Virus record (IMG/VR): IMGVR_UViG_3300040811_001959 | Length of the DNA: 64,000 nt | Reading direction: 5' to 3' (one strand) | DNA from: a virus | Taxonomy: Duplodnaviria; Caudoviricetes | In this document: positions 7,118 to 62,540 of the stretch, piece after piece | Layout: each line of letters opens with the position of its first letter | Numbering within the stretch: the first letter of the stretch is position 1 | Position numbers and translations under genes: made by a program | Notes under the pieces: generated by a model | What the model saw: only the letters and a program-made list of their open reading frames with translations | Told to the model about the DNA's origin: nothing | The model's database searches: none

Positions 7118-7119
7118 AA

Positions 7120-7761: not shown

Positions 7762-8384
7762 CTAAATTTTGGTCCAATAATATGAGAGATTAATATATAC
7801 TTCGTTCCTTTTGTAATAGGAGCAATCTTGTAAAAATAATAAGCAGGTAATATACATAAAGATCCCTGTGAAAGAAATTTTTGCGGAATAGGAACTGTGC
7901 TATGAAATTCAACAATTTCACCTCCTACAATATCTTCGTCATTTAAAAATAATAAAAGACTCAACTTATTATCGTAAGGTTTTTCATTGTTCCACCACTC
8001 GCAATCATGGTGCCAATTTATAAACTGGTCTTTTTCAAATTTACACAGATATAGGTTTTCTACATTCATAAGATCTAGCATAAAATTTTTATTGGCATCT
8101 GCGCCAACTTCGTTGAAAATTTTTTCTAAAAATTTATAATCTTCTGGGAAAAAATTTTTCTTTAGTGAGATAGAAAAGAAATTACCAAAATCGTTATTGA
8201 TATGATTATATCCGCCTTTTTCAAATTTGGTTATTATCTCTTTACAAGCGTTTTCACTAAAAAGTTTTTCATAAATTACAAATGGAGATTTTTTGTAATT
8301 TATAGGAGAATAATCAGTTACCTTGCCAAATATAGGAGGGTAAGGCGATCCTGGTTCTCTTGCATCTTGAATATTTACACCCAT
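7758..8384 (-). CDS. 2OG-Fe(II) oxygenase-like protein, distal His absent
   Basis: WHHD...KLSLLLFLND...GGE...LPAYYFYKIAPITKGTK, with Tyr where the distal His is expected. Confidence 0.8.
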   Translation of the reverse strand: MGVNIQDAREPGSPYPPIFGKVTDYSPINYKKSPFVIYEKLFSENACKEIITKFEKGGYNHINNDFGNFFSISLKKNFFPEDYKFLEKIFNEVGADANKNFMLDLMNVENLYLCKFEKDQFINWHHDCEWWNNEKPYDNKLSLLLFLNDEDIVGGEIVEFHSTVPIPQKFLSQGSLCILPAYYFYKIAPITKGTKYILISHIIGPKFR

Positions 8385-9718: not shown

Positions 9719-9873
9719 TCTATAATCCTATAAACGTAAGAAATTCGAGAATCAACTGAATATGCATGAGTGCATATAATTTTCTTTGTACTAGTTAATG
9801 TTGACTCGTACTCTCTATTGTTTTTTTGCGTAAAATTAATTTTACATTTTTTATATTTTAGAAGCAAGCTCAT
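9715..9873 (-). CDS. Possible small hypothetical protein
   Basis: Fills the gap in the operon; the track's start (9951) overlaps the upstream gene by about 100 nt, so the later ATG was chosen. Confidence 0.3.
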   Translation of the reverse strand: MSLLLKYKKCKINFTQKNNREYESTLTSTKKIICTHAYSVDSRISYVYRIIE

Positions 9874-11500: not shown

Positions 11501-12198
11501 GCTTCCTCAATTTTTTGTATTATATCGTTGATATCCTTCAATGAATGTGATATCGGTACGTTTGATAATTTATTATGTAGATTCAAATTATTTTTCTTTA
11601 TATCAGTATTATCATTTTTTAAAAGTCTAGTCATATTAATTTTATTTCTTACCTTATTATAAAACATTACAAGGAAAATAGGATAGTATGTCATATTTTT
11701 ACAAAAAAAAGCTTCTTGCTGGAAAAATAAAAAATCACCAGGATTAACAACACATTTTGAAATATTTTTATTATCACTGGTATAATATATAGATTCTATA
11801 TTTAAAGGAACTAGACAAAAATTATCAGAATATTTTAAAAGTTTTGTTTTTCTAAACCTTTCCGGAGTAACTATATTTTTAATACCATTGTCAATATAAT
11901 CTAGACTTGTTGATAAATCAAGAAATTGGATATCTTCTAAATATATGTCAGTATTAATTTGCAAAATATTATTGTAAATGGTTCTAATGATATCAATTAT
12001 AGGATCAATACAAAAAATAATTGAATAACTATTTGTTTCTGTAATTTTTCTGACAATACCATTAGCAAGTAGTCGCACGTCATCTAATTCCTGTTGAATT
12101 CTATGTTTATTAAAATCATGAACTGACCTTATTATATCAAAAAAATATTTAAGACGTGTTACATCTTTTTTAGATAACAATTGTTTTTCATATAGCAT
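11497..12198 (-). CDS. Hypothetical protein (possible degenerate oxygenase fold)
   Basis: 233 aa, 4-nt overlap in the operon; VNPGDFLFF resembles a cupin/DSBH strand. Confidence 0.55.
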   Translation of the reverse strand: MLYEKQLLSKKDVTRLKYFFDIIRSVHDFNKHRIQQELDDVRLLANGIVRKITETNSYSIIFCIDPIIDIIRTIYNNILQINTDIYLEDIQFLDLSTSLDYIDNGIKNIVTPERFRKTKLLKYSDNFCLVPLNIESIYYTSDNKNISKCVVNPGDFLFFQQEAFFCKNMTYYPIFLVMFYNKVRNKINMTRLLKNDNTDIKKNNLNLHNKLSNVPISHSLKDINDIIQKIEEA

Positions 12199-13855
12199 TA
12201 TTACTTGCCCTTAATCGTTTGAATGGAACATGTTCTATATAAGTTTCAAAGTATTCTCCATTTTTTGATGTAATTTGTCCTACATTACCATAGTTCGGAG
12301 TCTCTAAAATTAATAAATTTAAAAATTCATCAAAAGTAAAATAGCCATTAAAGTAAAAATTTTCTTTTACATTAATTTCAAGATATAATGCTAACCTATC
12401 AAACACGTTGCTGCTTGAAAAATCAAAATCAAATGCAGTAATGTTACCAAGTTGAGCTGCTAAAATTATATAATCAATTACACTATTTGGGTCTTTGTCG
12501 TAGGAATTGCCAAAAGTAATTTCATTATTAAAATCTGTACTAAAACTAGGTACTTTATCATTAAAATTAGTTTTTAATGTATCTGGTGTATTATTAAAAA
12601 TTCCATAACCTTGCAAATTGTTATCCTGCAATAAATAAAAACTAAATTTCTTAAGATTTTTGTTAAAATTTTCCCATTTATGTTGAAGTGAATCAATGTA
12701 TTGATATAAATTTGCTGGATCGATTATGGAAGAATTAATCGTTGATACAATTGTATCTATATAAATATTAGCTGCCACTAACTCTTCGTTAAATATAGGA
12801 TTCAAACCTAATTTTTCTAAATTAAATTCTATATAATTAGAATGATTTAGATCATTAATTAAAAAATTATTTTGAAGTGTATTAATATTATTGACATTAT
12901 TGCTAAATGATATTTTTTTTGCATAATCTTGATATTTTAAAATTTTAACAAATTTATTATCTAAAAGCTGGTTATTATAGATTGCTGGTTCAAGAAAATC
13001 AATTTGTTCATCTTCATAACCAGAAAAAATTATTGTAGGATTTGTAGTAGTAAGTTCTTTATCACTTTCTATAAAATTATTAAAAAATAGATTATTTATA
13101 CCTGTATTAATCACCAAATCTACATTAAAAGATTGACTACTAGTCGTAATTTGTGTTATATTTTTTTTATTTTTTCCATCTAATACTGGTAGGATTTCAG
13201 TTGATCCATCTACTATATTATCAGTTATAATGTCTAACCCTAATTCTGATATTTTGTTATCTAGAAGAAGAGCAAGATTATCTAAATCATAACATCCTGG
13301 CATTCTAAACCATAAAGGACCTGCAGATCCTTCGGTTAGAAATTTGCCGGTGAGATGATATAAATTATCATTATTTTTATATAAATCATATGGAAAGATT
13401 GTAAGCACATCAAGGATATTTTTATTTTTTTGTAGTAGATATTCTATAAAAGCTTGATATTTTCTTTCTGTTGAATCAAATTTTAAAAAATCATATTTTG
13501 TACAATAATAGTTTAATAAACTAAATTGTAACTGTGTCATCCTAGCTGGTAATATTATCTCATTTTCTATTATACCTTCAAAAGAAATTCCATGCCCGAC
13601 TGTGCTCTTTGTTTGTGTAAAAATCTCTGCAACGCTTATATTACAATGTTTAAAAAACAACGAAGGAAAGGAATATTGTTCAGCTACAGGTAGATATTGA
13701 TTTGAAATTATTTGTGTTCTGAAACTTTCATTATTAGTAAATAATATTGGATTACTTTGCGGATTATTTATCTTCAAGGATAATGCAATCACCTTTGCAG
13801 CAAATGTATTTCCTAATACTGCAATATTTTTTATTGCCATTTTGATCCTATACAA
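12188..13855 (-). CDS. Degenerate tryptophan-halogenase-fold protein
   Basis: IKNIAVLGNTFAA (broken GxGxxG), TKSTVGHGISF, VDLVINTG; size and layout similar to 9851..11500. Confidence 0.55.
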   Translation of the reverse strand: MYRIKMAIKNIAVLGNTFAAKVIALSLKINNPQSNPILFTNNESFRTQIISNQYLPVAEQYSFPSLFFKHCNISVAEIFTQTKSTVGHGISFEGIIENEIILPARMTQLQFSLLNYYCTKYDFLKFDSTERKYQAFIEYLLQKNKNILDVLTIFPYDLYKNNDNLYHLTGKFLTEGSAGPLWFRMPGCYDLDNLALLLDNKISELGLDIITDNIVDGSTEILPVLDGKNKKNITQITTSSQSFNVDLVINTGINNLFFNNFIESDKELTTTNPTIIFSGYEDEQIDFLEPAIYNNQLLDNKFVKILKYQDYAKKISFSNNVNNINTLQNNFLINDLNHSNYIEFNLEKLGLNPIFNEELVAANIYIDTIVSTINSSIIDPANLYQYIDSLQHKWENFNKNLKKFSFYLLQDNNLQGYGIFNNTPDTLKTNFNDKVPSFSTDFNNEITFGNSYDKDPNSVIDYIILAAQLGNITAFDFDFSSSNVFDRLALYLEINVKENFYFNGYFTFDEFLNLLILETPNYGNVGQITSKNGEYFETYIEHVPFKRLRASNNAI

Positions 13856-14384: not shown

Positions 14385-14972
14385 TTATTTCAATTTAGGA
14401 CCTACAATATCGAATGTAAGAACTTGCATAGCTCCTTGTAATAATGGATTTATTTTTATAGGTACAAAAGATGGATAAATTAACAAATTACCTTGCTCAT
14501 TATAATATTTAGGTAGTGATATGCCATATAAAGGGTCTACTAAGAATTGCCCACCTTCATATTTTTGTTTATCACTTAGAAAAACATAACCAGTTAGTTT
14601 TTGGTCACAGGACTCATTTGAAAAAAAATCTAATCTTGAATGGTATCCGTACTCACAACCTTGCTGGAAGGTTATTAATCTTGGATCGTTTTCAAATCCC
14701 CAAATTTCATATCCATAATTTCTAGTATTGCAATCAAAAATATATTTTAATATTTTTTCTTCTAAATGCAGTTGATTTTCAATTGTGTAAGACTCAAAGT
14801 TTTGTTTAGGTGTTCTCGGATTTGTAACTGGATTGGGTTCTATGTTGACAATATCATTGTCGATTTGCAATTCGCAAATTTCAGCGCATTCGTCGCTATA
14901 GAATATTTTAGGATATATAGTAAAACATTCTTTTTTAAGAAGAGAAGAATAGTCATATTCCATTATATTCAT
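14385..14972 (-). CDS. 2OG-Fe(II) oxygenase-fold protein, degenerate triad
   Basis: GYHSR...KLTGYVFLS..YEGGQF...GNLLIYPSF...GPKLK; Asp and distal His missing. Confidence 0.75.
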   Translation of the reverse strand: MNIMEYDYSSLLKKECFTIYPKIFYSDECAEICELQIDNDIVNIEPNPVTNPRTPKQNFESYTIENQLHLEEKILKYIFDCNTRNYGYEIWGFENDPRLITFQQGCEYGYHSRLDFFSNESCDQKLTGYVFLSDKQKYEGGQFLVDPLYGISLPKYYNEQGNLLIYPSFVPIKINPLLQGAMQVLTFDIVGPKLK

Positions 14973-45674: not shown

Positions 45675-45727
45675 TAATCCAGGCGGAGGGGTGGTGAGAT
45701 GGACCTTGAAAAAAGATCCGTAATGAT

Positions 45728-45755
45728 CACAGTGACTTAGCAGTAAGTCACTGAT
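45728..45755. other. 11-6-11 inverted-repeat site A
   Basis: CACAGTGACTT-AGCAGT-AAGTCACTGAT. Confidence 0.7.
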
Positions 45756-45775
45756 ATTGCACGGGATCATTTCCG

Positions 45776-45820
45776 TTGCAATTCTCACCCCGTGCTAGTA
45801 TACTATATGGACAGTGAGCG
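45776..45820 (+). promoter_or_regulatory. Early promoter cassette P1
   Basis: TTGCAA-17-TATACT...ACAGTGAGCG. Confidence 0.75.
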
Positions 45821-45860
45821 AAGGGCTTGCTTTTATACGCAACACAAACGGAGATACTTG

Positions 45861-46352
45861 ATGTCCAAGCAAAGAACATTCTTAAGAGACGTGATCATTC
45901 CTACTCTTCCAGAACTGTTTCCTACAGAAGAGTCCCGTGAATATGCAATGAAAAATCCGCATATATATAATGTAGAACATCTCGTAGAAATATGCCTAGC
46001 CAAGGTTGGCGGCTACGAGTTTGTAGATGAAGAAGGATATGACTTTACAGACTATTCAGACTCAAAGACTACCAGTATAAATGAGAAAACTCTTGTGCTT
46101 ACGATATGCTCAGTAGAAAATAAGATCGGTAGTCTCCGTATTTGTGCCTACAATCCAATCGCAGATCGCATTGACTTTTTCTACATGACACAGAGTCAAT
46201 TGAGGGCGACTGAGGTTGCTTGTTGGGGGAAGAACAGTCATAAGACTCGTATACTTGCTAGATGGAACGCAGGTCGAGACAATTATAATTCTTTTGAAAA
46301 GTTCCGTGTAGACTCATTTGAAACTCTTGCAAAGAAAGGGACACTGAAATGA
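45861..46352 (+). CDS. Hypothetical early protein, possible PD-(D/E)xK nuclease fold
   Basis: GGAG RBS; EHLVE...GYDFTDYSDSKT pattern is weakly nuclease-like. Confidence 0.6.
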   Translation: MSKQRTFLRDVIIPTLPELFPTEESREYAMKNPHIYNVEHLVEICLAKVGGYEFVDEEGYDFTDYSDSKTTSINEKTLVLTICSVENKIGSLRICAYNPIADRIDFFYMTQSQLRATEVACWGKNSHKTRILARWNAGRDNYNSFEKFRVDSFETLAKKGTLK

Positions 46353-46534
46353 TTCCGAATACAGTAAAGAATGACATACTGAATAAGCAGGAACAGGAGC
46401 TAGAACGGAATGCTCAGATCGCACGGATTAAGATCGTAGAACAAAAGATACGAGATTGGGACGTTCCCGGTTTGGGATTTGCGGGACTGAGGAGACTTGA
46501 ACGACAATTGCAAGACCTAAAAGGCTCGGTTTGA
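46349..46534 (+). CDS. Small early protein
   Basis: 61 aa; 4-nt overlap. Confidence 0.55.
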   Translation: MIPNTVKNDILNKQEQELERNAQIARIKIVEQKIRDWDVPGLGFAGLRRLERQLQDLKGSV

Positions 46535-46579
46535 GGAGACGACGAACAGCATCCACCGAGGGGCGATTTACCTAACAAT

Positions 46580-46607
46580 ATCAGTAGGTTAGTGCTAAGT
46601 CACTGTG
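46580..46607. other. 11-6-11 site B (degenerate)
   Basis: ATCAGTAGGTT-AGTGCT-AAGTCACTGTG. Confidence 0.55.
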
Positions 46608-46627
46608 ATCACAAGGGATCTTTTTTG

Positions 46628-46680
46628 TTGACTTTCCCAGTTCGATCAACTATACTATTAAGACAGTGAGCGAACAGCTC
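46628..46680 (+). promoter_or_regulatory. Early promoter cassette P2
   Basis: TTGACT-17-TATACT-ATTAAGACAGTGAGCGAACAGCTC. Confidence 0.85.
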
Positions 46681-46709
46681 CAATTGCAAACTCCACACTA
46701 GGAGACTCC

Positions 46710-46940
46710 ATGAACAGTTTCACCCGCTCAGCCCATCCATACTACACAGACCGAGACTTCTGCGACAAGCTCACACTATACCGGACAGCCTGGAGTACGG
46801 TACACGAGACCTATGTAGGACTCCGTGCGGTATGGCGTGATCCTAACAATGTTCCTGTCATCTCAGCCCATGTGCTAGGCACTCCGGACGAAGAGACACA
46901 TCTGTTCCGTCCAACTGAGTTGATCAACTACGTCCTCTAA
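46710..46940 (+). CDS. Early hypothetical protein
   Basis: TAGGAGA RBS; 76 aa. Confidence 0.75.
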   Translation: MNSFTRSAHPYYTDRDFCDKLTLYRTAWSTVHETYVGLRAVWRDPNNVPVISAHVLGTPDEETHLFRPTELINYVL

Positions 46941-46958
46941 AAAAAATAAAAAAAATGG

Positions 46959-47011
46959 TTGACTTCCGAAAGGGAGTCAGCTATACTATTAATACAGTGA
47001 GTGAACGGCTC
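46959..47011 (+). promoter_or_regulatory. Early promoter cassette P3 with spacer stem-loop
   Basis: A-tract, TTGACT-17-TATACT; GACTTCC-GAAA-GGGAGTC hairpin. Confidence 0.85.
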
Positions 47012-47043
47012 ACGCTTCCAATAACTCCTGCTACGGAGATCCA

Positions 47044-47364
47044 ATGTCAGAACTATCCAATACAGTTTACTCATTCTGCTCAGATCCCAGTCACGGTTGG
47101 CTAGCAGTTCCGCAGGCTGATCTCGCCCGTGTAGGTCTTTCCGCTGCAGACCTGTCAACATTCAGCTTTTGGGACTCAGAATACTTCTACTTAGAAGAGG
47201 ACATGGACTATGCGATCTTCTGTCGTGCCTTTGAGCGCACCGTAGGACACGCTCCAAACGTGAGATTTATTCCCTCAACAAGAGGCAATCACCCAATCCG
47301 CCGCAAGAACCGCAACATTATTGGTTGTACAGACAGTTCAAAACTCATCTCTCTAATGGTATAA
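47044..47364 (+). CDS. Early hypothetical protein
   Basis: GGAG RBS; SDPSHGWLAVP...YLEEDMD. Confidence 0.8.
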   Translation: MSELSNTVYSFCSDPSHGWLAVPQADLARVGLSAADLSTFSFWDSEYFYLEEDMDYAIFCRAFERTVGHAPNVRFIPSTRGNHPIRRKNRNIIGCTDSSKLISLMV

Positions 47365-47365
47365 A

Positions 47366-47524
47366 ATGGAAGTAGAAGCAATCGTAAGGATCACGTTGAA
47401 GGAAGGATATGACCTTTCAACCCCAGATCGCGTCATAGAAGTGCTTAATGAAATGGATTATGAGTTTACACACGAGGCGATCGAAGACACTGAAATCGTA
47501 GACATCAATTGGGAGATTGACTGA
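47366..47524 (+). CDS. Small acidic protein (52 aa)
   Basis: MEVEAIVRITLKEG...; found manually. Confidence 0.55.
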   Translation: MEVEAIVRITLKEGYDLSTPDRVIEVLNEMDYEFTHEAIEDTEIVDINWEID

Positions 47525-47703
47525 TGACATATCGGGAAGCAGATCAGCGACTAACCGCAATCCTAGACCGGCGGGTTAAAGAGTGTACAGAAAACGAAGA
47601 CTTACAGAACAGTCATTCGTATAAGCTAGGTGTGTTAATGAGTATGATGTCTTGTGTACTAACCGACAGTCAATTACGGAAGTTTGAACAAGGAGTGCTC
47701 TAA
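47524..47703 (+). CDS. Small protein (59 aa)
   Basis: TGATG coupling; MTYREADQRL... Confidence 0.55.
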   Translation: MTYREADQRLTAILDRRVKECTENEDLQNSHSYKLGVLMSMMSCVLTDSQLRKFEQGVL

Positions 47704-47720
47704 AAAAGATCCTTAACAAG

Positions 47721-47748
47721 ATCAGTGACTTACAGCTAAGTCACTGAT
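47721..47748. other. 11-6-11 site C (perfect palindromic arms)
   Basis: ATCAGTGACTT-ACAGCT-AAGTCACTGAT. Confidence 0.8.
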
Positions 47749-47768
47749 CCTACAGGGAATCATTTTTG

Positions 47769-47821
47769 TTGATTTTTTTGCCCCAATCAACTATACTATT
47801 TAGACACTGAGCGACAAGCTC
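47769..47821 (+). promoter_or_regulatory. Early promoter cassette P4
   Basis: TTGATT-17-TATACT...ACACTGAGCGACAAGCTC. Confidence 0.8.
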
Positions 47822-47850
47822 CAATTGCAAACTCCACGCACGGAGACAGT

Positions 47851-48036
47851 ATGAAAGCAGTCATTAAGTTCCGCCCAAAAGCAGAGAAGCGCTCACGAAA
47901 CTTGGATGCCGATCTGCGTACAGGTCAGGTCTACCTACTAGAGGGCAGGACTGTTGAGGAGACTATGAAGTCAGCTCGTCTAAACAATCGTCGCTACGAA
48001 ATGATCGGAGGCAAGAAATTTTTGGTAGTCAGCTAA
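47851..48036 (+). CDS. Small basic early protein
   Basis: GGAG RBS; 61 aa. Confidence 0.7.
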   Translation: MKAVIKFRPKAEKRSRNLDADLRTGQVYLLEGRTVEETMKSARLNNRRYEMIGGKKFLVVS

Positions 48037-48044
48037 AAAAAAGG

Positions 48045-48097
48045 TTGACGGCAGGGCCTCGCCCTGCTATACTATTAAGACAGTGAGCGAACAGCTC
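48045..48097 (+). promoter_or_regulatory. Early promoter cassette P5
   Basis: TTGACG-GCAGGGCCTCGCCCTGC-TATACT; palindromic spacer. Confidence 0.85.
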
Positions 48098-48127
48098 TTC
48101 CTTCCAAAACTCCAACCGGGAGATCCA

Positions 48128-48334
48128 ATGTCAGATACACGAAAAGCCACTAACCGACTGCTAGAACTAGTAGGCGACGGACTGCTAGATCAGTATCAGG
48201 TAATCCTAGCCTGCGTAAAGTATATGAGCGAGGACGATGTTGCAGACATGTGTCACCTAAACGAGTTTTTTGAGCAGGAGGACGAGGACCTGCTGGACGA
48301 CTTCAACTATGCGGGCAGTCGTCATCATTATTAA
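48128..48334 (+). CDS. Early hypothetical protein
   Basis: GGGAG RBS before ATG 48128. Confidence 0.75.
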   Translation: MSDTRKATNRLLELVGDGLLDQYQVILACVKYMSEDDVADMCHLNEFFEQEDEDLLDDFNYAGSRHHY

Positions 48335-48343
48335 AAAAAAAGG

Positions 48344-48396
48344 TTGACACGAGGCGTTCGGCCTGCTATACTATTAAGACAGTGAGCGACAAGCTT
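48344..48396 (+). promoter_or_regulatory. Early promoter cassette P6
   Basis: TTGACA-17-TATACT...ACAGTGAGCGACAAGCT. Confidence 0.85.
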
Positions 48397-48427
48397 GCAT
48401 TTTTCCAATCTACGCTAAGAGGGCACA

Positions 48428-48805
48428 ATGGCAACAAGAGCAAGAATTGCATACCGCTACACAGACGGATCATATGTTTCTGCTTATCATCATTGGGACG
48501 GCTATTTAGACGGCTTAGGTCTTCTGTTAACAGAACACTATACAGATCCTAAACTAATTGAGAAATGCATACAGAAAGGCAACGCTTCTACATGGACTCC
48601 AGAGCCTGAGAACAATAATTACTATCACAACGAGCGTTGTATGACACATGCCGACACAAAGGCACTAATGGAAGACGCTTGGAACATGGATGAGGAATAT
48701 CTTTACGTATACTCAGAAAAACTGCAAGGTTGGAGTGTACGATTCCGCAACGGAGATACGACACGGATCTCAGCTGAAAGTATTTTGTCAGCAAGAGAAA
48801 AATAA
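48428..48805 (+). CDS. Early hypothetical protein
   Basis: MATRARI...Y.HWDGY...LG..L..HY motif. Confidence 0.8.
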   Translation: MATRARIAYRYTDGSYVSAYHHWDGYLDGLGLLLTEHYTDPKLIEKCIQKGNASTWTPEPENNNYYHNERCMTHADTKALMEDAWNMDEEYLYVYSEKLQGWSVRFRNGDTTRISAESILSAREK

Positions 48806-48808
48806 AGG

Positions 48809-48861
48809 TTGACGGCAGGGCCTCGCCCTGCTATACTATTAAAACATTGAGCGAGTCAGCT
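48809..48861 (+). promoter_or_regulatory. Early promoter cassette P7
   Basis: Spacer identical to P5. Confidence 0.85.
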
Positions 48862-48892
48862 CACTTTTCCAAACTTGCACTAAGGACACACA

Positions 48893-49897
48893 ATGACACA
48901 GGTCAAAATTGTCGAAGGAACTTACAACGTTCGTGGAACTGATACATCTGTTGCAGGTATGATCTTTACGCTTGTAGAGGACTTCAAGCTTGGTGTTAAT
49001 GGCGGATATATTACAATTGACGGCAGCAAGACAGTAGGCTTTCCTGATCGTAACCTTAAGATCAAAATGGTAGGACCTCACTGTAGAGAACTGCTTGACG
49101 AAACTGTTTCTGTTAACAGTCGCAAAGAAACTGATGAGGAGACTATCGAAAGACTGCGAGAGCGATTTGACATGTTAGAGGACATGACACGAGCATGCAA
49201 GAAGGGCGATGTACGTGCAATGATCGTGTCAGGTCCTCCGGGAGTAGGCAAGTCACACGGTGTTGAGAAAGTACTTGCAAAGCATGATATGATCACAACG
49301 CTTGCGAATACTGCTCCTAAATACGTAATCGTAAAAGGTGCAATGTCGCCTTTAGGTCTATACATGAAACTGTACAACTATTCTGCTAAAGATAATGTTG
49401 TAGTTTTTGATGACTGTGACAGCATCTTCCAGGATGAACTTAGTCTTAACATCTTAAAAGCTGCATTAGATAGCAAGAAGACACGTAAGATCTTTTGGAA
49501 TACCGACAGTCGTGCGCTTCGTTCGGAAGGTATTCCAGATCAGTTCGAGTTTAAAGGCTCTGCAGTATTCATTACTAATCTAAAGTTTGAGAAAGTCAAA
49601 GGCAAATTGCGTGAGCATTTAGAAGCATTAGAGTCACGCTGTCACTACATCGACCTAACTATCGATACAGATAGAGAGAAGATGTTACGTATCAAGCAGA
49701 TCGTATCAGACGGCATGCTCGACGAATATGCATTTGAAGACGACACTGCAGAGGAGATACTAGACTTCGTGTCAATTAATAAAGATCGCTTGAGAGAACT
49801 CAGTCTTCGGACTGTGCTTAAGATTGCAGATCTTGCAAAAGCTTTTCCAACCAAATGGGAAGCTATGGCAGAGAATACGGTGATGCGTCGAGCCTAA
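48893..49897 (+). CDS. P-loop (AAA+-like) ATPase
   Basis: Walker A GPPGVGKS, Walker B VVFDDCD, FITN sensor, LESR Arg finger. Confidence 0.88.
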   Translation: MTQVKIVEGTYNVRGTDTSVAGMIFTLVEDFKLGVNGGYITIDGSKTVGFPDRNLKIKMVGPHCRELLDETVSVNSRKETDEETIERLRERFDMLEDMTRACKKGDVRAMIVSGPPGVGKSHGVEKVLAKHDMITTLANTAPKYVIVKGAMSPLGLYMKLYNYSAKDNVVVFDDCDSIFQDELSLNILKAALDSKKTRKIFWNTDSRALRSEGIPDQFEFKGSAVFITNLKFEKVKGKLREHLEALESRCHYIDLTIDTDREKMLRIKQIVSDGMLDEYAFEDDTAEEILDFVSINKDRLRELSLRTVLKIADLAKAFPTKWEAMAENTVMRRA

Positions 49898-49972
49898 GCC
49901 CTCGGGCTCCGCATTGCACGGGCGGCAGTGCCCCTCAGCTGTCGCCCCAGAACAAAAAAAATAAAAAAAAGG

Positions 49973-50025
49973 TTGACGCGAGCACAAGGCTTTGCTATAC
50001 TATTAATACAGTGAGCGACAAGCTC
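49973..50025 (+). promoter_or_regulatory. Early promoter cassette P8
   Basis: A-tract, TTGACG-17-TATACT...ACAGTGAGCGACAAGCTC. Confidence 0.85.
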
Positions 50026-50057
50026 ATCCTTCCAATAACTCCACATAGGAGATCACA

Positions 50058-50333
50058 ATGGCAGCAAGACGCAAGACAATCGACTTAGACACTTTCGTCA
50101 ACTGGTGCAACGACAGGCTCGCCAAGAGCAATTTCCAAGAACAAGACAGCACAGAAGGTGTTGGCTATCGCAAGGGCATTATGACAGCCGTTGAGGAGGC
50201 GCTGTTCAGTGCCAATCGCTACCAAGGCTATCGCGCCATCCGTCCACACGAAGCAGAAGTGAAGGACGGCTGGGGATACGACGATGCGACTGGTGAGTGG
50301 AACGATGACACTCGTCGTGTGTATTTCATCTAA
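50058..50333 (+). CDS. Early hypothetical protein
   Basis: TAGGAGA RBS; 91 aa. Confidence 0.75.
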   Translation: MAARRKTIDLDTFVNWCNDRLAKSNFQEQDSTEGVGYRKGIMTAVEEALFSANRYQGYRAIRPHEAEVKDGWGYDDATGEWNDDTRRVYFI

Positions 50334-50352
50334 TCTAAAACTAAGGAGAATT

Positions 50353-50511
50353 ATGATCGAAGACAACCGTACCAGCAAAGATATCCGCAAGGAGATCAAG
50401 CAATTGAAAAAGCTTGTGAAGGTAAAGCAGGAACTGTTAGGCATCGTGCTGATGCAGGAAGAGCTAAGCCAGATCAAACTACAGAAGACTTTTGACGACG
50501 CCGGTAACTAA
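50353..50511 (+). CDS. Small coiled-coil protein
   Basis: TAAGGAG RBS. Confidence 0.65.
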   Translation: MIEDNRTSKDIRKEIKQLKKLVKVKQELLGIVLMQEELSQIKLQKTFDDAGN

Positions 50512-50535
50512 TTAATTTAATCTAAGGAGCACGAC

Positions 50536-50718
50536 ATGGCACAGGTAACCAAGCGAGTACAATCACTTTCACAGACAGTACAAGAAGTAGAAGAAGACAT
50601 CTGCTGGCTGCAGCGACATGCAGTGAACGGCATCGTACCGCAGAAGGTACAGAAAGAACTGCAGGACCTGCAGCGGACACGAGCTAGCCTGATTGAACGA
50701 CAAACAGAGCTGGCGTAA
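50536..50718 (+). CDS. Small coiled-coil protein
   Basis: TAAGGAG RBS. Confidence 0.65.
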   Translation: MAQVTKRVQSLSQTVQEVEEDICWLQRHAVNGIVPQKVQKELQDLQRTRASLIERQTELA

Positions 50719-50807
50719 ACGGTTCCTTATAAGGCAAGGGTTTGGTTTGGTAGAGCCTGGAGTGACCCTTGCCGCCTCCACCACTACACTTCACGACGAG
50801 AATCACA

Positions 50808-51038
50808 ATGACAACGATCCAGAAACGATACAATAAACTAAGACAGATGTCAATCCAGGAATTAGAAACAGAACGATCCAGCCTGTATGACGCGATGGCA
50901 GAAGAAGAAGCAGATCCCTACGGAGGATGGGGTAGCTATCACCACGACAGCCTAAGCCTAGATGTGTCAATTGTAGAAGAGGTGCTGGACGAAAAAAAGA
51001 AAGCCAACAAGATCAATGACTTAGCGTTAACCTGCTGA
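50808..51038 (+). CDS. Early hypothetical protein
   Basis: Start MTTIQKR; 76 aa. Confidence 0.6.
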   Translation: MTTIQKRYNKLRQMSIQELETERSSLYDAMAEEEADPYGGWGSYHHDSLSLDVSIVEEVLDEKKKANKINDLALTC

Positions 51039-51039
51039 T
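51012..51039. other. 11-6-11 site D (degenerate)
   Basis: ATCAATGACTT-AGCGTT-AACCTGCTGAT. Confidence 0.55.
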
Positions 51040-51059
51040 ATCGCAAGAGATCTTTTCTG

Positions 51060-51100
51060 TTGATTTTTTGGACCGGATCAGATATACTATATGCATAGTG
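51060..51100 (+). promoter_or_regulatory. Early promoter cassette P9
   Basis: TTGATT-17-TATACT. Confidence 0.7.
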
Positions 51101-51131
51101 AATGATACCACAACGCCAACTAGGAGCGAAC

Positions 51132-51326
51132 ATGACACGAGAGCAGATCCAACAAGCAACACAGGCATTCCTTGCAAACGGCGGAGAGATCCAGAAGATG
51201 CCAGAGCGCAAATCCTACACCTGGGCTGACATCAGCAACATGCTGGAGCGGATACTAGATCAGGTAGACGGCATTGATGACGAAGTTGAAGCCGGAGGAT
51301 ATGACGAAGCTGCCGTAGGAATTTGA
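51132..51326 (+). CDS. Early hypothetical protein
   Basis: TAGGAG RBS; IQQATQAFLANGGEIQK.P. Confidence 0.7.
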   Translation: MTREQIQQATQAFLANGGEIQKMPERKSYTWADISNMLERILDQVDGIDDEVEAGGYDEAAVGI

Positions 51327-51345
51327 AAATAATTTAAAAAAATGG

Positions 51346-51398
51346 TTGACTTCTCCGCAGGAGTCAACTATACTGTATAGACACTGAGCGAACAGCTC
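51346..51398 (+). promoter_or_regulatory. Early promoter cassette P10
   Basis: GTTGAC...GTCAAC inverted repeat spanning -35 and spacer; TATACT. Confidence 0.85.
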
Positions 51399-51428
51399 CA
51401 CTCCACTCACTCCACACTAGGAGATCAC

Positions 51429-51656
51429 ATGCCACAGTCAGTCTACCACATCCAATTACAAGAGATCCAAGAAGAGATTGATATGCTGAACGAAGCCTGC
51501 ACTAGGCCTGAAGAAGACGAGTTCCAGATCATGCGTTGGAGAGATCGCATCTTTGATCTGGAGCAGGAGCAGATCTTAATTGAGCAGCGACATGCAGAGC
51601 TGGATCAGATGGACGACGACTACGCCTTGTTTGAAGACTTCATCGAATTCGTTTAA
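51429..51656 (+). CDS. Acidic early protein
   Basis: TAGGAGA RBS. Confidence 0.7.
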   Translation: MPQSVYHIQLQEIQEEIDMLNEACTRPEEDEFQIMRWRDRIFDLEQEQILIEQRHAELDQMDDDYALFEDFIEFV

Positions 51657-51675
51657 TCACTACCAAGGAGACACC

Positions 51676-51894
51676 ATGAGTGTAGCAGCCAACATGAACT
51701 TCATCTGGGGCGCCATTGCCAACAAGAGCCGCACAATGATCCAAACAGATCAGGGTCCGATGCGGATCTTCTCCATCCGCACCAAGGCAGGAGTGGATAT
51801 GGAGATCATGGCCGTCAACAATCAATCCAACAACCACACCTTCATCACAGTCACTCCAGACAATTCGGGTGACATCAGATCACGACTTTTTTAA
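51676..51894 (+). CDS. Early hypothetical protein
   Basis: AAGGAGA RBS. Confidence 0.7.
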   Translation: MSVAANMNFIWGAIANKSRTMIQTDQGPMRIFSIRTKAGVDMEIMAVNNQSNNHTFITVTPDNSGDIRSRLF

Positions 51895-51902
51895 AAAAAT
51901 AG

Positions 51903-51956
51903 TTGACTTATCCAAGCTCGTTTGCTATACTATATAGACAGTGAGCGAACGAGCTC
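51903..51956 (+). promoter_or_regulatory. Early promoter cassette P11
   Basis: TTGACT-17-TATACT...ACAGTGAGCGAACGAGCTC. Confidence 0.85.
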
Positions 51957-51987
51957 CATTTCCAATAACTCCAACAGAGAGTTCCAA

Positions 51988-52206
51988 ATGTTGCAAGCAA
52001 TCCGATCAGCTTCAGGCCTAATCTCAGTCCTATTCTTCTTCATCGCAGTAGGCAGTGACAATTGGCCCGCCACACTCTGTGCCGCAGCCATAGCGTTCTT
52101 GTTCGCAGTCGTAGAATATGAAGAAGCAAAAGAACTGGGCTTCTTCAACAGACCCACGGCGCAAAAGAAAATTTCCCTACAAAATCAACAGGTTGCACGT
52201 AAATAA
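51988..52206 (+). CDS. Small two-helix membrane protein
   Basis: Two hydrophobic segments. Confidence 0.65.
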   Translation: MLQAIRSASGLISVLFFFIAVGSDNWPATLCAAAIAFLFAVVEYEEAKELGFFNRPTAQKKISLQNQQVARK

Positions 52207-52211
52207 CTGAA
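52184..52211. other. 11-6-11 site E (most degenerate)
   Basis: ATCAACAGGTT-GCACGT-AAATAACTGAA, at the same distance from the promoter as sites A-D. Confidence 0.4.
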
Positions 52212-52231
52212 ATTGCATAGGATCTTTTTTG

Positions 52232-52290
52232 TTGCTTTTTTTATGCTAGTAAACTATACTATTAAAACAGTGCAGCAAAGCTTGCTGCGT
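52232..52290 (+). promoter_or_regulatory. Early promoter cassette P12
   Basis: TTGCTT-17-TATACT...ACAGTGCAGCAAAGCTTGCTGC hairpin. Confidence 0.7.
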
Positions 52291-52316
52291 TTTTTAAATT
52301 GCATTAGGAGTTTACT

Positions 52317-52568
52317 ATGCAAACTATTAAAGTACTTGTAAGCGGCACAAAAAGCTTTATGCAACATGCAATTGCACTGACAACTGGCTATACAGTTAAA
52401 AGTTACTTGCATGAAGAAAGTATGAGTGAGGATGACGAATGGACAGAGTTTGCAGTATATGTGTTAGAGGGAACAAGAGAAGACATTGATGAAGTAGACA
52501 CGCAACTGCAACAAATTGCAGCAATTGTTGATGAAGAACTATACGGAGGAGAACTAGGCGAAATTTAA
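52317..52568 (+). CDS. Acidic early protein
   Basis: TAGGAG RBS. Confidence 0.7.
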   Translation: MQTIKVLVSGTKSFMQHAIALTTGYTVKSYLHEESMSEDDEWTEFAVYVLEGTREDIDEVDTQLQQIAAIVDEELYGGELGEI

Positions 52569-52580
52569 TGTAACACAAAC

Positions 52581-52829
52581 ATGCAGCATTATGCTGCATG
52601 TTTTTTGCATACAACAAACGGAGAGATTAACGTGCAACAAACAAAACACAAACCTCTGGACGTTCCTGGCTCACCTTATTGGTGCGGCAAGAAGGATAAG
52701 CAAGACGGATTAAAGTCACGTCCACATTACTATCCCAGCATGCTGGCAGGCAGTATGAAACGCTGGGGCACTGACCGTATGATGCAGATGGAGATAGAAG
52801 AGTATGAGCTTGGATACAACGAAAACTAA
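52581..52829 (+). CDS. Hypothetical protein
   Basis: GSPYWCGKKD...PHYYP; start uncertain. Confidence 0.5.
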   Translation: MQHYAACFLHTTNGEINVQQTKHKPLDVPGSPYWCGKKDKQDGLKSRPHYYPSMLAGSMKRWGTDRMMQMEIEEYELGYNEN

Positions 52830-52998
52830 TAACCTATATCGTGTACGCTATGCACACGGTACCAACGAATATGTGGACGAGATCATAGCACCCACAGAGC
52901 GGCATGCAGCCCAGATCATCATACACTACATGCACACCAACAACTGGACTACAGGACGGGTGCTGGGTGTACAACTACTAAAGCGAGCATACTCATGA
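52804..52998 (+). CDS. Hypothetical protein
   Basis: 64 aa. Confidence 0.5.
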   Translation: MSLDTTKTNNLYRVRYAHGTNEYVDEIIAPTERHAAQIIIHYMHTNNWTTGRVLGVQLLKRAYS

Positions 52999-53180
52999 AC
53001 ATATACTCTGCAGTAGAACGATTGGAAAGATTGATGTGGGAGAAGACAAGGATTGAAAGAGAGATAGTAGAAATGAATATCATAATCGATCGTCTCTCGG
53101 AATCCGAGAAAGAAAATTTTTTCGGTCGGGAGGAGAAAAAAAATTTCCTCGAGGGGTCGGGGCTTATAAATTATAATTAA
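52995..53180 (+). CDS. Hypothetical protein
   Basis: 61 aa; 4-nt overlap. Confidence 0.5.
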   Translation: MNIYSAVERLERLMWEKTRIEREIVEMNIIIDRLSESEKENFFGREEKKNFLEGSGLINYN

Positions 53181-53332
53181 TGATAACAGCTACTTAGCTT
53201 AATGACCCCATATGTGCAAAACCACCACCCTGAAACTGTAAGTACTCCACCATGAAAAATTTGCGCCCGCAGATTTTTTTCACGCAGGAACCCCTTTGGG
53301 CTGCAAGCCTCCGTACCCCTCATCCGGGTGTT

Positions 53333-53740
53333 TCACGGTAATAACTGTATGGGAATTTGATTCACGGTGGAATGCACCAGTGTCGCTGCTAACACAAAGT
53401 GTCGACTCATCATCTGGAACGGTTCTCTGTCAATCCTCGCATAAGCTGACTCGCCAATCTGTCTATAGTACTCCGTTGTTATTCCACGGTGCTGCCTGTA
53501 TGTGGGCCACGCTCCTGAGACTAGCAGTGCACAATCCGCAACCGTTTTACAGTCTAGGTCTGTTTCAGCGGTTAGATATTGTTCTGCGAAAGTCTTCTCC
53601 TGCGTGACAGCAGGTTTATCACAGTATTCTGCCATTACGGCTGTTGTATACTGCTGCAGTTCCCATGGTAAGCATAATCCTTGCTGGTCTACGACTTCTT
53701 TAACTAATTGTTCAAATATGGTTAAGTAAACTGCTTGCAT
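53333..53740 (-). CDS. Hypothetical protein
   Basis: 135 aa; TAAATA at 53745-53750. Confidence 0.7.
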   Translation of the reverse strand: MQAVYLTIFEQLVKEVVDQQGLCLPWELQQYTTAVMAEYCDKPAVTQEKTFAEQYLTAETDLDCKTVADCALLVSGAWPTYRQHRGITTEYYRQIGESAYARIDREPFQMMSRHFVLAATLVHSTVNQIPIQLLP

Positions 53741-60621: not shown

Positions 60622-61020
60622 TTATTTTTTGGTTGGCATTGTAAAAAGTGCATTTACTGCATTTTCAGTTGGCTTACGTGCAAACACACACCATTGTAAT
60701 ACTTCTTCATCTGGATAGTTTTCTGCTACATAATCTTGGAAGCTCTTGCCTGTTGTATACACATCATCTACTACAAGCACAGGATCATTTAAGTTTTGAG
60801 TACTGTACTTATCTAGTGCTTTGCCTAGTGCTACGCCACCTCTGGGTATACCTATAGCGGCTCGCCAGTTACGAGGCTCATACTCTCTAATAATATGTGC
60901 AAGGGCTACCCATTCGTCTGGTGATATAGCATCACATTCGATCTTCCAGGTAAGTGGCAAGCCTGCATGGCTAATAAAATTTATTTTTTGGAATAAGTCT
61001 ATGTTAATGTTTTTATTCAT
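60622..61020 (-). CDS. Type I phosphoribosyltransferase (OPRT-like, short)
   Basis: GIPRGG, VLVVDDVYTTGKS PRPP-binding loop. Confidence 0.85.
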   Translation of the reverse strand: MNKNINIDLFQKINFISHAGLPLTWKIECDAISPDEWVALAHIIREYEPRNWRAAIGIPRGGVALGKALDKYSTQNLNDPVLVVDDVYTTGKSFQDYVAENYPDEEVLQWCVFARKPTENAVNALFTMPTKK

Positions 61021-62540
61021 GAAAATACCTTTACATTGTATAGTTTACTAAATTCTTGTGCATCTGTCAATGTGTTTACTATCGGTTTGCCTTTTATATT
61101 GAGACTAGTGTTTAACAACATAGGACAGCCTGTTAGTTCGTACCATCTTTCCAACAACGCTCTAAAACCTGGGTGATCTTGCTTTGTAACTGTTTGAACT
61201 CTGCTGGTTCCGTCTGCGTGGACAATTGCAGGGTATCTTTCAGGATAGCGACAACGTGCGGTGTACTGCATATAACGTCCGAAGGGCGGCTCAAATAAAC
61301 TGGATGCGTGTTCTGCAAGGACTGCAGGTGCGAAGGGACGGAACTTCTGTCTACGTTTAATGGCATTGACTTTATCTTTAATATCCATACGCTGAGGGTC
61401 AGCAAGAAGGCTGCGAGCGCCAAGGCTACGAGGACCGAACTCGGCTCTTCCTGACGCAACCCCTGCAATACCTGTTTGCATAAGTTCTGTAATGATTTCA
61501 TCTACTGGATATTCTCCTTCTATATCATAACCCAGATACGGTCCAGGCCATTCTATATGTGTGCCTCTATGTGCAAGCACTGCTCCTATGCAACTGCCTG
61601 CATCGCCCGGATTAGGCATTATCCAAATGTTACCTTCACCATTCCAGTGTTCAACTATCTTGCTGTTAGCACTGCAATTCAATGCACAACCACCCATAAA
61701 CACTAGGTTACTGCTAGCATATGTCCTAGCTACAGCCTTACTTATCTTAGTTAATATATGCTCATATGCCCATTGCGTTCCTGCTGCTACGTCATACGCC
61801 CATTGTGTAAATTCTTGTTTATCGTCTAAGATATTAAATGCAATCTTAGTAGGTTCCCACCACATGCATCCCCTATGTAGATTGTGCTTTAGCTGGAAGT
61901 TAGGAAGGCGATTAAAAAAGTTTAAATGGTTAGGAAATTGTTCCCAAAAATCGTTTAATATTGTTTCTCCATACTTACCTGCATCTCCATATGCTGCCAT
62001 ACCCATAAGTATGTATTCTTCCTCATTTGGTTTAAGACCTATGCGCTGTGTCATTGCACTATACCAAATACCTATGCTGTTAGGATAGTTCCATGTCCGT
62101 TTACAGGTTAGTTTATCATACTCACCTTCCCACACACTTAGTGTATTCCATTCTCCTATTGCATCTATGACTAGAATTGTTGCATGATCAAATCCACTAG
62201 TATAATATCCCGCTGCTGTATGTGAACGATGATGACCTACTGTTGATATAGGCGATGTTATACCATATTGTGTCAAATATTTTTTTATGCGATTCTTATT
62301 GAATAAATCTTTTTGTCCTGCATACCATTGTCTTGTAGTTTTTAGAAAAGGTTTTTCATACCAAACAATCCTATCAGGCTGCCCCCATTGTAGTGCATAA
62401 TTAATAATACTAGGATTTAAGTGTGCATCATTTTTTTTATGGCTAAATCTTTCTGCATGACTTGCAAATTTTATTTTGTCGTTGTTATGCACACTAATTG
62501 CAGCGTCATGACTATTAGCACTAATTCCCCATGTAATCAT
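61017..62540 (-). CDS. Carbamoyltransferase (CmcH/NodU/TobZ family)
   Basis: HDAA, HHRSHTAAGY, DAIGE, EYILMGMAAYG, GGCALN, PGDAGS.IG, GRAEFGPRSLG, RPFAP, LLNTSLN. Confidence 0.93.
   Translation of the reverse strand: MITWGISANSHDAAISVHNNDKIKFASHAERFSHKKNDAHLNPSIINYALQWGQPDRIVWYEKPFLKTTRQWYAGQKDLFNKNRIKKYLTQYGITSPISTVGHHRSHTAAGYYTSGFDHATILVIDAIGEWNTLSVWEGEYDKLTCKRTWNYPNSIGIWYSAMTQRIGLKPNEEEYILMGMAAYGDAGKYGETILNDFWEQFPNHLNFFNRLPNFQLKHNLHRGCMWWEPTKIAFNILDDKQEFTQWAYDVAAGTQWAYEHILTKISKAVARTYASSNLVFMGGCALNCSANSKIVEHWNGEGNIWIMPNPGDAGSCIGAVLAHRGTHIEWPGPYLGYDIEGEYPVDEIITELMQTGIAGVASGRAEFGPRSLGARSLLADPQRMDIKDKVNAIKRRQKFRPFAPAVLAEHASSLFEPPFGRYMQYTARCRYPERYPAIVHADGTSRVQTVTKQDHPGFRALLERWYELTGCPMLLNTSLNIKGKPIVNTLTDAQEFSKLYNVKVFS

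Follow-up and report, generated by a model that had tools for sequence, protein, structure and literature searches.

A conserved upstream box, doubled into palindromes, separates two classes of early promoters in an uncultured giant phage

Class I activator sites, for example those of CRP, are located at -61.5 or -71.5. IHF sites are found upstream of phage early promoters other than that of Mu, such as lambda pL, and in the lambda H' site an A/T run lies about 9 bp from the IHF core. In E. coli, IHF sites also occur inside palindromic repeats, the RIB/RIP (BIME-1) elements, at the 3' ends of transcription units. At the early promoter of phage Mu, IHF bound upstream counteracts the repression exerted by H-NS (PMC8501957). 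The consensus sequence of IHF is WATCARNNNNTTR (WATCAR-N4-TTR), which belongs to a 35-bp asymmetric site with a flanking A-tract (PMC8421141). A further kind of early promoter element, the PeSL (promoter-early stem-loop) cassette, is known from the T4-like phages RB49/phi1, T4/PST and KVP40/nt-1 (PMC2839356, PMC4122927); it is a composite terminator/promoter of hyperplastic regions, in which a stem-loop is placed just 5' of a sigma70-like early promoter (PMC4122927).

The DNA analysed here (the window) is a stretch of 64,000 nucleotides from an uncultured marine giant phage of the Caudoviricetes (IMG/VR record IMGVR_UViG_3300040811_001959). Within 6.5 kb it contains 12 promoters of the form TTGNNN-17-TATACT, five of which (P1, P2, P4, P9 and P12) are preceded by an inverted repeat of 28 bp. 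The original prediction, which placed these repeats at 45728, 46580, 47721, 51012 and 52184, was right in all five cases. It also divided them as 11-6-11; the 28-bp inverted repeat stands, but this division is arbitrary, the symmetry comprising 12 bp in each arm around a 4-bp centre (12-4-12). The double box of P4 (47721..47748), described as a perfect repeat, is indeed perfect in the 12-4-12 form, ATCAGTGACTTA-cagc-TAAGTCACTGAT. The others, which like P4 are given no strand, are those of P1 (45728..45755; CACAGTGACTTA-gcag-TAAGTCACTGAT), P2 (46580..46607; ATCAGTAGGTTA-gtgc-TAAGTCACTGTG), P9 (51012..51039; ATCAATGACTTA-gcgt-TAACCTGCTGAT) and P12 (52184..52211; ATCAACAGGTTG-cacg-TAAATAACTGAA), the last being the most degenerate of the five. 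P2, P9 and P12 are poor palindromes (7/12, 7/12 and 5/12 complementary arm positions, respectively). The arms vary mostly in the N4 positions, without compensation between arms, and the five 6-bp centres (AGCAGT, AGTGCT, ACAGCT, AGCGTT and GCACGT) are all unlike one another. In four of the five sites the symmetry reaches outwards as far as a left-hand A-run and a right-hand T-run, forming an extended palindrome of about 64-68 bp, for instance at approximately 45708-45775 in P1 and at 47702-47768 in P4 (A6-GATCC ... GGAATC-A-T5); only in P1 and P4 does it include GATCC/GGATC. The boxes of P9 and P12 overlap the 3' ends of the upstream ORFs (stop codons at 51036-51038, TGA, and 52204-52206). The 28-mer pattern, with three mismatches or fewer, matches twice in the window and never in 100 shuffles, and a looser half-site scan of the window recovers exactly the five promoter-linked sites plus three weak, unrelated matches.

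The distance to the promoter is fixed, as had been claimed: exactly 20 nt separate each site from the TTG of its -35 hexamer (5/5), and the linkers differ in sequence among the five sites and contain no indels. The -35 positions of these sigma70-type early promoters, all on the plus strand, are 45776 (P1, 45776..45804, TTGCAA-17-TATACT), 46628 (P2, 46628..46656, TTGACT-17-TATACT), 47769 (P4, 47769..47797, TTGATT-17-TATACT), 51060 (P9, 51060..51088, TTGATT-17-TATACT) and 52232 (P12, 52232..52260, TTGCTT-17-TATACT). P12 heads a longer series of small genes, and P9 precedes a 64-aa gene (51132-51326) with a SutA RNAP-binding domain, an early gene which hints at a gammaproteobacterial host. The linkers of all five carry GG(G)ATC or GGAATC and a T-run before the -35. 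The repeat is absent from each of the seven A-tract promoters (46959, 48045, 48344, 48809, 49973, 51346 and 51903), again as predicted. The -35 begins with TTGAC in all seven of these and in one of the five box promoters (Fisher p = 0.01), and four of the five promoters of the box class have weaker -35 hexamers than those of the A-tract (UP-element) class.

The boxes are kept in relatives. With respect to the two closest ones, L079 and L080, the P4 box is identical in all three phages although its flanks are only about 89-91% identical. In P1 the right arm is invariant and the left arm variable, with the homology starting at the left A-run. In L080 the P2 box differs only by having CGGG instead of TAGG as the left-arm N4, while L079 lacks the entire P1 gene, the P2 box and the P2 promoter. 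The P9 orthologues differ in R5 (A/G), N4 and the 4-bp centre, and overall the arm differences among the three phages concern mainly N4 and R5 (A/G). Across about 150 related loci a more general pattern is found, consisting of one arm, TAAGTCAYTGAT, followed by GGAATC and a T-run, 19-21 or 30 nt before the -35. On the top strand this module of about 31 bp reads (GC)TAAGTCAYTGAT, 7-8 nt, GGAATC or GGGATC, and T-run; it always has the same orientation and stands in front of unrelated genes in different lineages. Among 921 unique promoters of these loci, YAA-N4-YTGAT occurs upstream of the -35 in 12 cases at offsets 19-20 and in 6 at offset 30, against 0-1 cases at any other offset between 0 and 65 and about 0.06 expected per offset. 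The peaks persist when N4 is not GTCA (6 + 3 cases, eight different N4). The distances from box to -35 seen in relatives are 20/21, 30, 40, 43/44 and 54 nt; the 21-nt cases have 16-bp spacers, so that the distance to the -10 is kept, and in the 30-nt class GGAATC and the T-run shift along with the box. In 1.5 Mb of related loci, 33 unique exact matches to the core ATCAATGACTTA were counted, compared with 0-2 for each of 20 scrambled versions; a 357-kb relative rated complete has its four exact copies all within 8 kb of the early region. Only 8 of 73 unique arm contexts have an inverted partner 4 nt away, and in one relative (L088) the two arms point to two divergent promoters. The box hardly changes between phages whose AAA proteins share only 41-70% identity.

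It is important to note that the original prediction offered, as one of two readings, operators of a dimeric activator defining a second promoter class. The promoter class holds in outline, since the boxes are tied to promoters, follow the helical phase and are conserved in relatives; there is no need for an obligate symmetric dimer, as the relatives mostly carry a single oriented arm. From the observed sequence, spacing, orientation, conservation and non-compensatory variation of the boxes, each arm would be a protein-binding box acting at the DNA level within an oriented upstream promoter module. By hexamer geometry, its 12-bp core would be centred near -61.5 (-71.5 in some relatives), on a constant face of the helix with respect to RNA polymerase. 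Read on the bottom strand, this core is ATCAR-N4-TTR, the IHF consensus. With moderate confidence, the module, which this lineage has in doubled form, may be regarded as the site of a bending protein similar to IHF. Given the match to the consensus, the binder is most likely the host IHF or a protein that reads DNA in the same way. Such a protein would introduce a DNA bend directly 5' of the -35 and modulate the second class of early promoters, most likely by activation or by relief of silencing, as in the early promoter of phage Mu. In this lineage the module is doubled head-to-head, which gives the palindrome of about 64-68 bp. Of the two copies, the one distal to the promoter has no promoter of its own; it may take a second protein on the same face, with the two bend centres about 31 bp (about three helical turns) apart; alternatively, it may be the relic of a divergent-promoter layout like that of the relative mentioned above.

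ATCAR-N4-TTR fits exactly in seven of the ten arms, with TGAC, TAGG or CAGG as N4 and the leading W not kept; the three arms that miss the consensus are P1 left, P2 right and P12 right. The arms of relatives are mostly single and keep one orientation, as expected for an asymmetric, single-copy IHF site, and an A/T run is found on the IHF-correct side in the proximal module of all five sites and in the distal module of four, 13-14 bp from the core. The likeness to the IHF sites of Mu Pe and other phage early promoters includes the ATCAR-N4-TTR core, an asymmetric oriented site adjoining a sigma70 early promoter, helical phasing, and the A/T run on the ATCA side. There are also differences. At 13-14 bp instead of about 9 bp, the A/T run is at or beyond the edge of the 35-bp IHF footprint and would instead suit the C-terminal domain of the RNA polymerase alpha subunit (alpha-CTD); N4 is much constrained in the family, with TGAC predominating and positions 6-10 seldom varying; positions 1 and 2 (A, T), usually constant in IHF sites, often vary; and nothing in the IHF consensus corresponds to the conserved GGAATC. 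In addition, the arrangement in head-to-head pairs in this phage and the reiteration at many promoters of one phage set these boxes apart from IHF sites. The motif ATCARNNNNTTR by itself is weak (21 matches expected in the window, 30 observed), and the box was set against several known consensus sequences before IHF fitted, which carries a multiple-comparison cost. Six related phage contigs yielded no HU/IHF gene (PF00216). The RIB/RIP (BIME-1) elements of E. coli resemble the present ones in that a core of the IHF type is embedded in a larger intergenic element which is palindromic, reiterated and located at gene ends, but they are chromosomal, flanked by REP sequences and unphased to promoters.

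The main rival to an IHF-like binder, which we consider possible but unlikely, is that the boxes are operators of another sequence-specific factor, either of the host or of the phage (which would make it early or bring it in with the virion), that binds the 12-14 bp core at the class-I-like positions -61.5/-71.5, contacts alpha-CTD on GGAATC and the T-run, and turns this subclass of early promoters on or off. In this sense, the core is conserved past the IHF consensus (TGAC in N4, then GC), GGAATC and the T-run sit at the position of alpha-CTD and travel with the box in the 30-nt class, and the orientation of the box is strict and its phasing helical. The restriction of exact copies to the early region in the relative rated complete is unlike a general architectural site, and the palindromic pairs of this lineage would fit a dimer. 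On the contrary, the presence of very different N4 (TGAC versus NAGG, TAAC and ACAC) at the same promoter position fits poorly with base-specific reading. The near-constancy of the box despite a divergent AAA protein is also unusual, since operators specific to a phage tend to change along with the protein that binds them. None of the 10 early proteins encoded downstream of the five box promoters showed a DNA-binding domain, and no candidate gene for such a factor was found. Class I CRP sites share with the boxes the core position, the steps of one helical turn and an A/T-rich stretch before the -35 for alpha-CTD; the boxes lack TGTGA-N6-TCACA, however, GTGA and TCAC being 12 bp apart in the palindrome, and their unit is a single box of 12-14 bp. 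It is likewise doubtful that the box is read, instead of by IHF, by a dedicated factor of the clade (an early product or a virion component) which recognises a 12-14 bp word at -61.5/-71.5 and thereby defines two early classes, with the doubled box of this lineage also insulating transcription units from one another.

An RNA-level explanation, by which the palindromes would be PeSL stem-loops that terminate or insulate the upstream unit before the next early promoter, seems improbable. The P4 palindrome can form a long hairpin between an A-run and a U-run, similar to a bidirectional terminator (-26 kcal/mol, z -4.4), P1 also folds better than its shuffles (z -5.6), and the boxes are located at the ends of the preceding ORFs or overlap them. 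Nevertheless, P2, P9 and P12 fold like shuffles (z +1.1, -0.2 and +0.3), the arm changes are not compensated, the T-run begins about 14 nt past the main stem, and most relatives have one arm alone. As folding exceeds that of shuffles in only two of the five repeats and a canonical terminator is called at none of the five boxes, the element is probably not an RNA hairpin. The resemblance to PeSL cassettes lies in other respects, namely arrays of strong sigma70-like early promoters, small unknown genes, the hyperplastic region of a large T4-like phage, an inverted repeat directly 5' of the promoter, and indels or replacements that end in or at the cassettes. PeSL stem-loops, however, are short, G+C-rich terminators of variable sequence, while the repeat described here has a conserved sequence, often no hairpin, a single arm in relatives and an exact spacing to the -35.

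The PeSL model also bears on the mosaicism of the early region, where gain, loss and replacement of cassettes are seen in comparison with L079 and L080 and in metatranscriptome contigs. The breakpoints relative to L079/L080 are 45821/46700, 45848/46359, 47531/47704, 48034-48116, 50728/50777, 51319/51338 and 51901/51973. Since most of them lie within repeated promoter/leader sequences, the mosaicism is explained by homologous exchange between repeated promoter cassettes, as in that model. In the other reading of the original prediction, its leading one, the cassettes are exchanged by a tyrosine recombinase (the XerCD of the host or one of the phage) that acts on the repeats; such recombinases are blocked from exchange between unlike sites by heterology in the crossover region. 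The 28-bp length and inverted repeat, drawable as 11-6-11, are all that the boxes share with dif/pdif: they have 4-bp instead of 6-bp centres, unlike between copies, they lack the conserved inner ATAA/TTAT of dif, and they match E. coli dif (PMC3025954) at only 3-6 of 28 positions in either orientation (chance, about 7). Although the early region is mosaic among relatives and two breakpoints coincide with the left-hand outer boundary of the extended palindrome (for P1, in L079 and L080; for P4, in L080), Xer-type exchange is largely refuted and very improbable, as none falls in any repeat centre (window versus L079 and L080), no tyrosine recombinase (PF00589) was found in the 30 window ORFs scanned against Pfam or in five related IMG/VR contigs (two of them rated 100% and 93% complete), P2, P9 and P12 have poorly symmetric arms, and the exact -35 spacing and the single arms of relatives serve no role in recombination.

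The regulation of uncultured marine giant phages is almost unknown. The present analysis defines a conserved and precisely placed cis-element which separates two classes of early promoters in a phage family recorded in numerous metagenomes of estuarine and marine origin, and removes the tempting but very probably wrong notion of Xer-type cassette exchange. If a phage factor binds the box, the latter is a direct handle to find it, for example by DNA-affinity capture, and a dedicated factor of the clade would mean two separately controlled early classes in widespread, uncultured aquatic T4-like giant phages. If IHF is the binder, part of the early programme would be tied to a host nucleoid protein that tracks the growth state, as in Mu.

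The early region of this phage is read rightward, is flanked by an origin-like non-coding stretch and by replication genes, and contains twelve TTGNNN-17-TATACT promoters, each followed by a conserved leader. Five of them (P1, P2, P4, P9 and P12) are preceded by an inverted repeat. These repeats start at 45728, 46580, 47721, 51012 and 52184, as in the original prediction, and the fixed distance claimed for them is exact: each 28-bp site ends 20 nt before the TTG of the -35. The predicted 11-6-11 geometry holds as an inverted repeat but not in its split, the symmetry being 12-4-12. Between box and -35, the five linkers share only GG(G/A)ATC and a T-run, with no insertion or deletion. The seven remaining promoters (46959, 48045, 48344, 48809, 49973, 51346 and 51903) lack the repeat, as had also been noticed, and instead carry A8-GG directly 5′ of TTGAC. 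The suggestion that the boxes mark a second promoter class is retained. The -35 hexamers of the box promoters (TTGCAA, TTGACT, TTGATT, TTGATT and TTGCTT) are poorer, TTGAC being present in seven of seven A-tract promoters (Fisher p = 0.01), which is consistent with reliance on an upstream factor. As a separate observation, the 17-bp spacers of the A-tract promoters (46959-46987, 48045-48073, 48809-48837 and others) are G+C-rich inverted repeats of mutually unrelated sequence, such as GCAGGGC-ctc-GCCCTGC, and the box promoters have GTTGAT(T) paired with (A)ATCAAC immediately 5′ of the -10; these spacer repeats may be terminator hairpins embedded in promoters.

The DNA of the window is from a large aquatic phage that is uncultured. 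It carries genes for tail fibres, a family-B DNA polymerase, a DnaB-like helicase, a primase, a cyanomyovirus/HMO-2011-type virion protein and an AAA protein of phrog_1250, a family occurring in T4-like phages. Among GenBank phages, neither the DNA of the region (near-mode search) nor the P4 module (distant-mode search) found a match, so no cultured relative offers support. About 150 related loci, taken from IMG/VR and from JGI metagenomes (longest contig 357 kb), served for comparison. The nearest relatives, IMGVR_UViG_3300021335_001867 / Ga0213859_10000139 (L001, L002, L004 and L079) and Ga0222719_10000012 (L080), are 78-98% identical to the window over the alignable parts. The gene driven by P9 (51132-51326, plus strand, 64 aa) encodes a SutA RNA polymerase-binding domain (PF20661, E 1.3e-8, 34.5 bits, cut-off 29.3); this early protein may bind the host RNA polymerase, and the domain hints at a gammaproteobacterial host. 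Elsewhere, at 4314-13855, where G+C is very low (25-29%), a tryptophan-halogenase-like protein is encoded together with two radical-SAM proteins, and a Nol-type carbamoyltransferase lies at 61017-62540 (minus strand), all auxiliary genes uncommon in phages.

The comparison within the family defines the unit. In 1.5 Mb of related loci, 33 unique exact copies of the arm sequence ATCAATGACTTA (on the top strand, TAAGTCATTGAT) were counted, and scrambled versions gave 0-2. Some of these copies lie in phages with an AAA protein that shares no more than 41-70% identity with that of the window. Most copies are single arms: of 73 unique contexts, just 8 gave an inverted partner at 4 nt, and a few more gave one at 10 nt. 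Upstream of the -35 in 921 unique promoters, YAA-N4-YTGAT occurs 12 times at offsets 19-20 and six times at 30, against 0-1 cases at each remaining offset up to 65; the peaks remain, with eight different N4, after excluding the common GTCA. Cases at 21 nt have a -35/-10 spacer of 16, so the distance to the -10 is preserved, and longer distances of 40, 43/44 and 54 also exist. In the 30-nt class, GGAATC and the T-run travel with the box while a separate A-rich stretch adjoins the -35; the T-run thus belongs to the module. At about 690-900 of the related locus L088, a 12-4-12 repeat (ATCAAGAGGTTA-gccc-TAAGTCATTGAG) lies between two divergent promoters and gives one arm to each, 19 nt away on the minus strand and 43 nt on the plus. 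On this family-wide evidence the unit is an oriented upstream promoter module, of which the palindrome in the lineage of the window is the doubled form. All four exact copies in a 357-kb relative rated complete fall within 8 kb of its early region, and across the family the genes downstream of the module encode small, mutually unrelated proteins.

Other features of these sequences were considered. GATC is 2.4-fold over-represented at 45700-53700 (71 observed, 29.9 expected by base composition) and not in the rest of the window. Several copies flank the boxes, but as a conserved (Dam) feature GATC was rejected, since most relatives have GGAATC there. In some relatives the upstream gene ends at the TAA of TAAGTCATTGAT, yet a special role as a stop was discarded, the three frames being equally used (14, 10 and 14 of 69). 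Some TAAGTCATTGAT copies stand beside short 'tagtgtag'-type repeat arrays (minus strand in L034 at ~2288 and ~14744, L027 at ~16205, L109 at ~14414-14504 and L011 at ~15740), in some cases as inverted pairs about 38 nt apart. The arrays resemble iteron-like repeats upstream of P1 (45498-45678), and the box may have a second role in an origin-like region. In L024 (~1270-1350) and L083 (~1-81), tRNA-like 3′ ends (...GGTTCAAATCCC...CCA and ...GGTTCGAGTCC...CCA) lie directly upstream of ATCTTTTT-type promoters, indicating tRNA genes interleaved with early promoter cassettes. In 596 Gb of bacterial genomes, the 24-bp palindrome core has six matches, about four being estimated by chance; they fall in unrelated taxa, several resemble ordinary terminators, and they indicate neither a host nor an operator family. 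A 4.6-kb Propionivibrio MAG contig (L162), from an unrelated bacterial bin, carries at 2131-2160 the complete 12-4-12 repeat in exact form (ATCAGTGACTTA-aata-TAAGTCACTGAT), which may be a related element, a terminator or a chance match. In the literature, the 12-mers gave only chance primer matches.

With moderate confidence, the best mechanism would be the binding of this upstream module by an IHF-type bending protein. From the outside inward the arm reads ATCAR-N4-TTR, which is the IHF consensus WATCARNNNNTTR (PMC8421141) minus its leading W. The fit is exact in seven of ten arms, with three kinds of N4, and orthologous arms of the window, L079 and L080 differ mostly in N4 or by an A/G switch at the fifth position. 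As a bare pattern it is weak (30 matches in the window, 21 expected), and the weight of the evidence accordingly falls on position and conservation. The domain PF00216 (HU/IHF) was not found in six related phage contigs, which leaves a phage-encoded IHF unsupported; if the binder is IHF, it would be the host's own. If the -10 occupies -12 to -7 and the spacer is 17 bp, the core nearer the promoter would span -67 to -56 (centre -61.5), and the 30-nt class and the palindrome would be centred at -71.5 and -69.5. IHF bound as at lambda H′ would put the bend centre near -54, with a footprint up to -35; another IHF, bound to the distal arm, would have its centre about 31 bp, or roughly three turns, further upstream. 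The boxes of CRP, FNR, LexA, Fur, Fis, PhoB and LuxR/HapR, the MatP matS site, the DnaA box and the MotA box were all rejected by spacing or letters.

A serious rival, possible although less than probable, is a dedicated factor that binds at a class-I-like position, the alpha-CTD occupying the T-run. Several features fit IHF poorly: TGAC dominates N4 in the family, positions 6-10 seldom vary and positions 1-2 are looser than is usual in IHF sites; GGAATC has no counterpart in an IHF site; and the A/T run lies 13-14 bp from the core, compared with about 9 bp in lambda H′. Against such a factor, diverse N4 are tolerated at the same promoter position, the box is almost invariant across widely diverged phages, and no DNA-binding domain is recognisable in the early proteins encoded downstream of the five box promoters.

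That the boxes are terminator or insulator hairpins of the PeSL (promoter-early stem-loop) type is unlikely overall and plausible for P1 and P4 only. The P4 palindrome is perfect and that of P1 nearly so; both fold as RNA better than every shuffle (z -5.6 for P1, -4.4 for P4). Symmetry extends outward in four of the five sites (A-run left, T-run right) into a palindrome of some 64-68 bp, containing GATCC/GGATC in P1 and P4 only. However, P2, P9 and P12, in which just 7, 7 and 5 of the 12 arm positions are complementary, fold no better than shuffles (z +1.1, -0.2 and +0.3), and no terminator-like site was called at any of the five boxes. The arms vary independently (TAGG opposite TGAC in P2, TGAC opposite CAGG in P9) while ATCA(A/G) and TT(A/G) are retained in both, as two protein half-sites would, rather than a stem.

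The prediction's other proposal, site-specific recombination at dif/Xer-like sites, is rejected as very improbable: identity to E. coli dif is 3-6 of 28, at or below chance, the five centres are unlike one another, five relatives (two at least 93% complete) and the 30 window ORFs scanned yielded no tyrosine recombinase, and no gene-content end against L079 or L080 falls in a centre. Some of these ends lie in repeated promoter/leader sequences (45821/46700, 48034-48116 and 51901/51973) and some where genes start (45848/46359); others coincide with the left outer border of the extended palindrome, for P1 in both L079 and L080 and for P4 in L080 (47704). Salt-marsh metatranscriptomes, available as contigs and hence giving no transcript starts or ends, contain related strains. 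Their contigs continue across the P2 and P9 boxes; two lose their match at 47703, just 5′ of the P4 palindrome, a hint only, as DNA carry-over or repeat breaks are possible. Their joints link promoter cassettes, such as one from 47057 to 47869 that all four runs (X1, X2, X3 and X5) contain. In that variant, 25 other letters take the place of 811 nt comprising the three P3 genes and the P4 box with its promoter, a natural cassette turnover between gene starts. The only joint to touch a box is of low depth and ends at 46587, within the P2 left arm and outside its centre; no joint falls in a centre. A relic devoid of function takes what these readings leave.

In T4-like phages, recombination between repeated promoter/stem-loop units, the PeSL cassettes, shuffles early genes (PMC4122927; PMC2839356). 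The breakpoint pattern of the early region is the one described for PeSL; in contrast to those stem-loops, the boxes are conserved in sequence, often form no hairpin and keep an exact spacing to the -35. The module is related to two known kinds, IHF-assisted phage early promoters and PeSL-like cassettes, and is widespread in an uncultured phage family.
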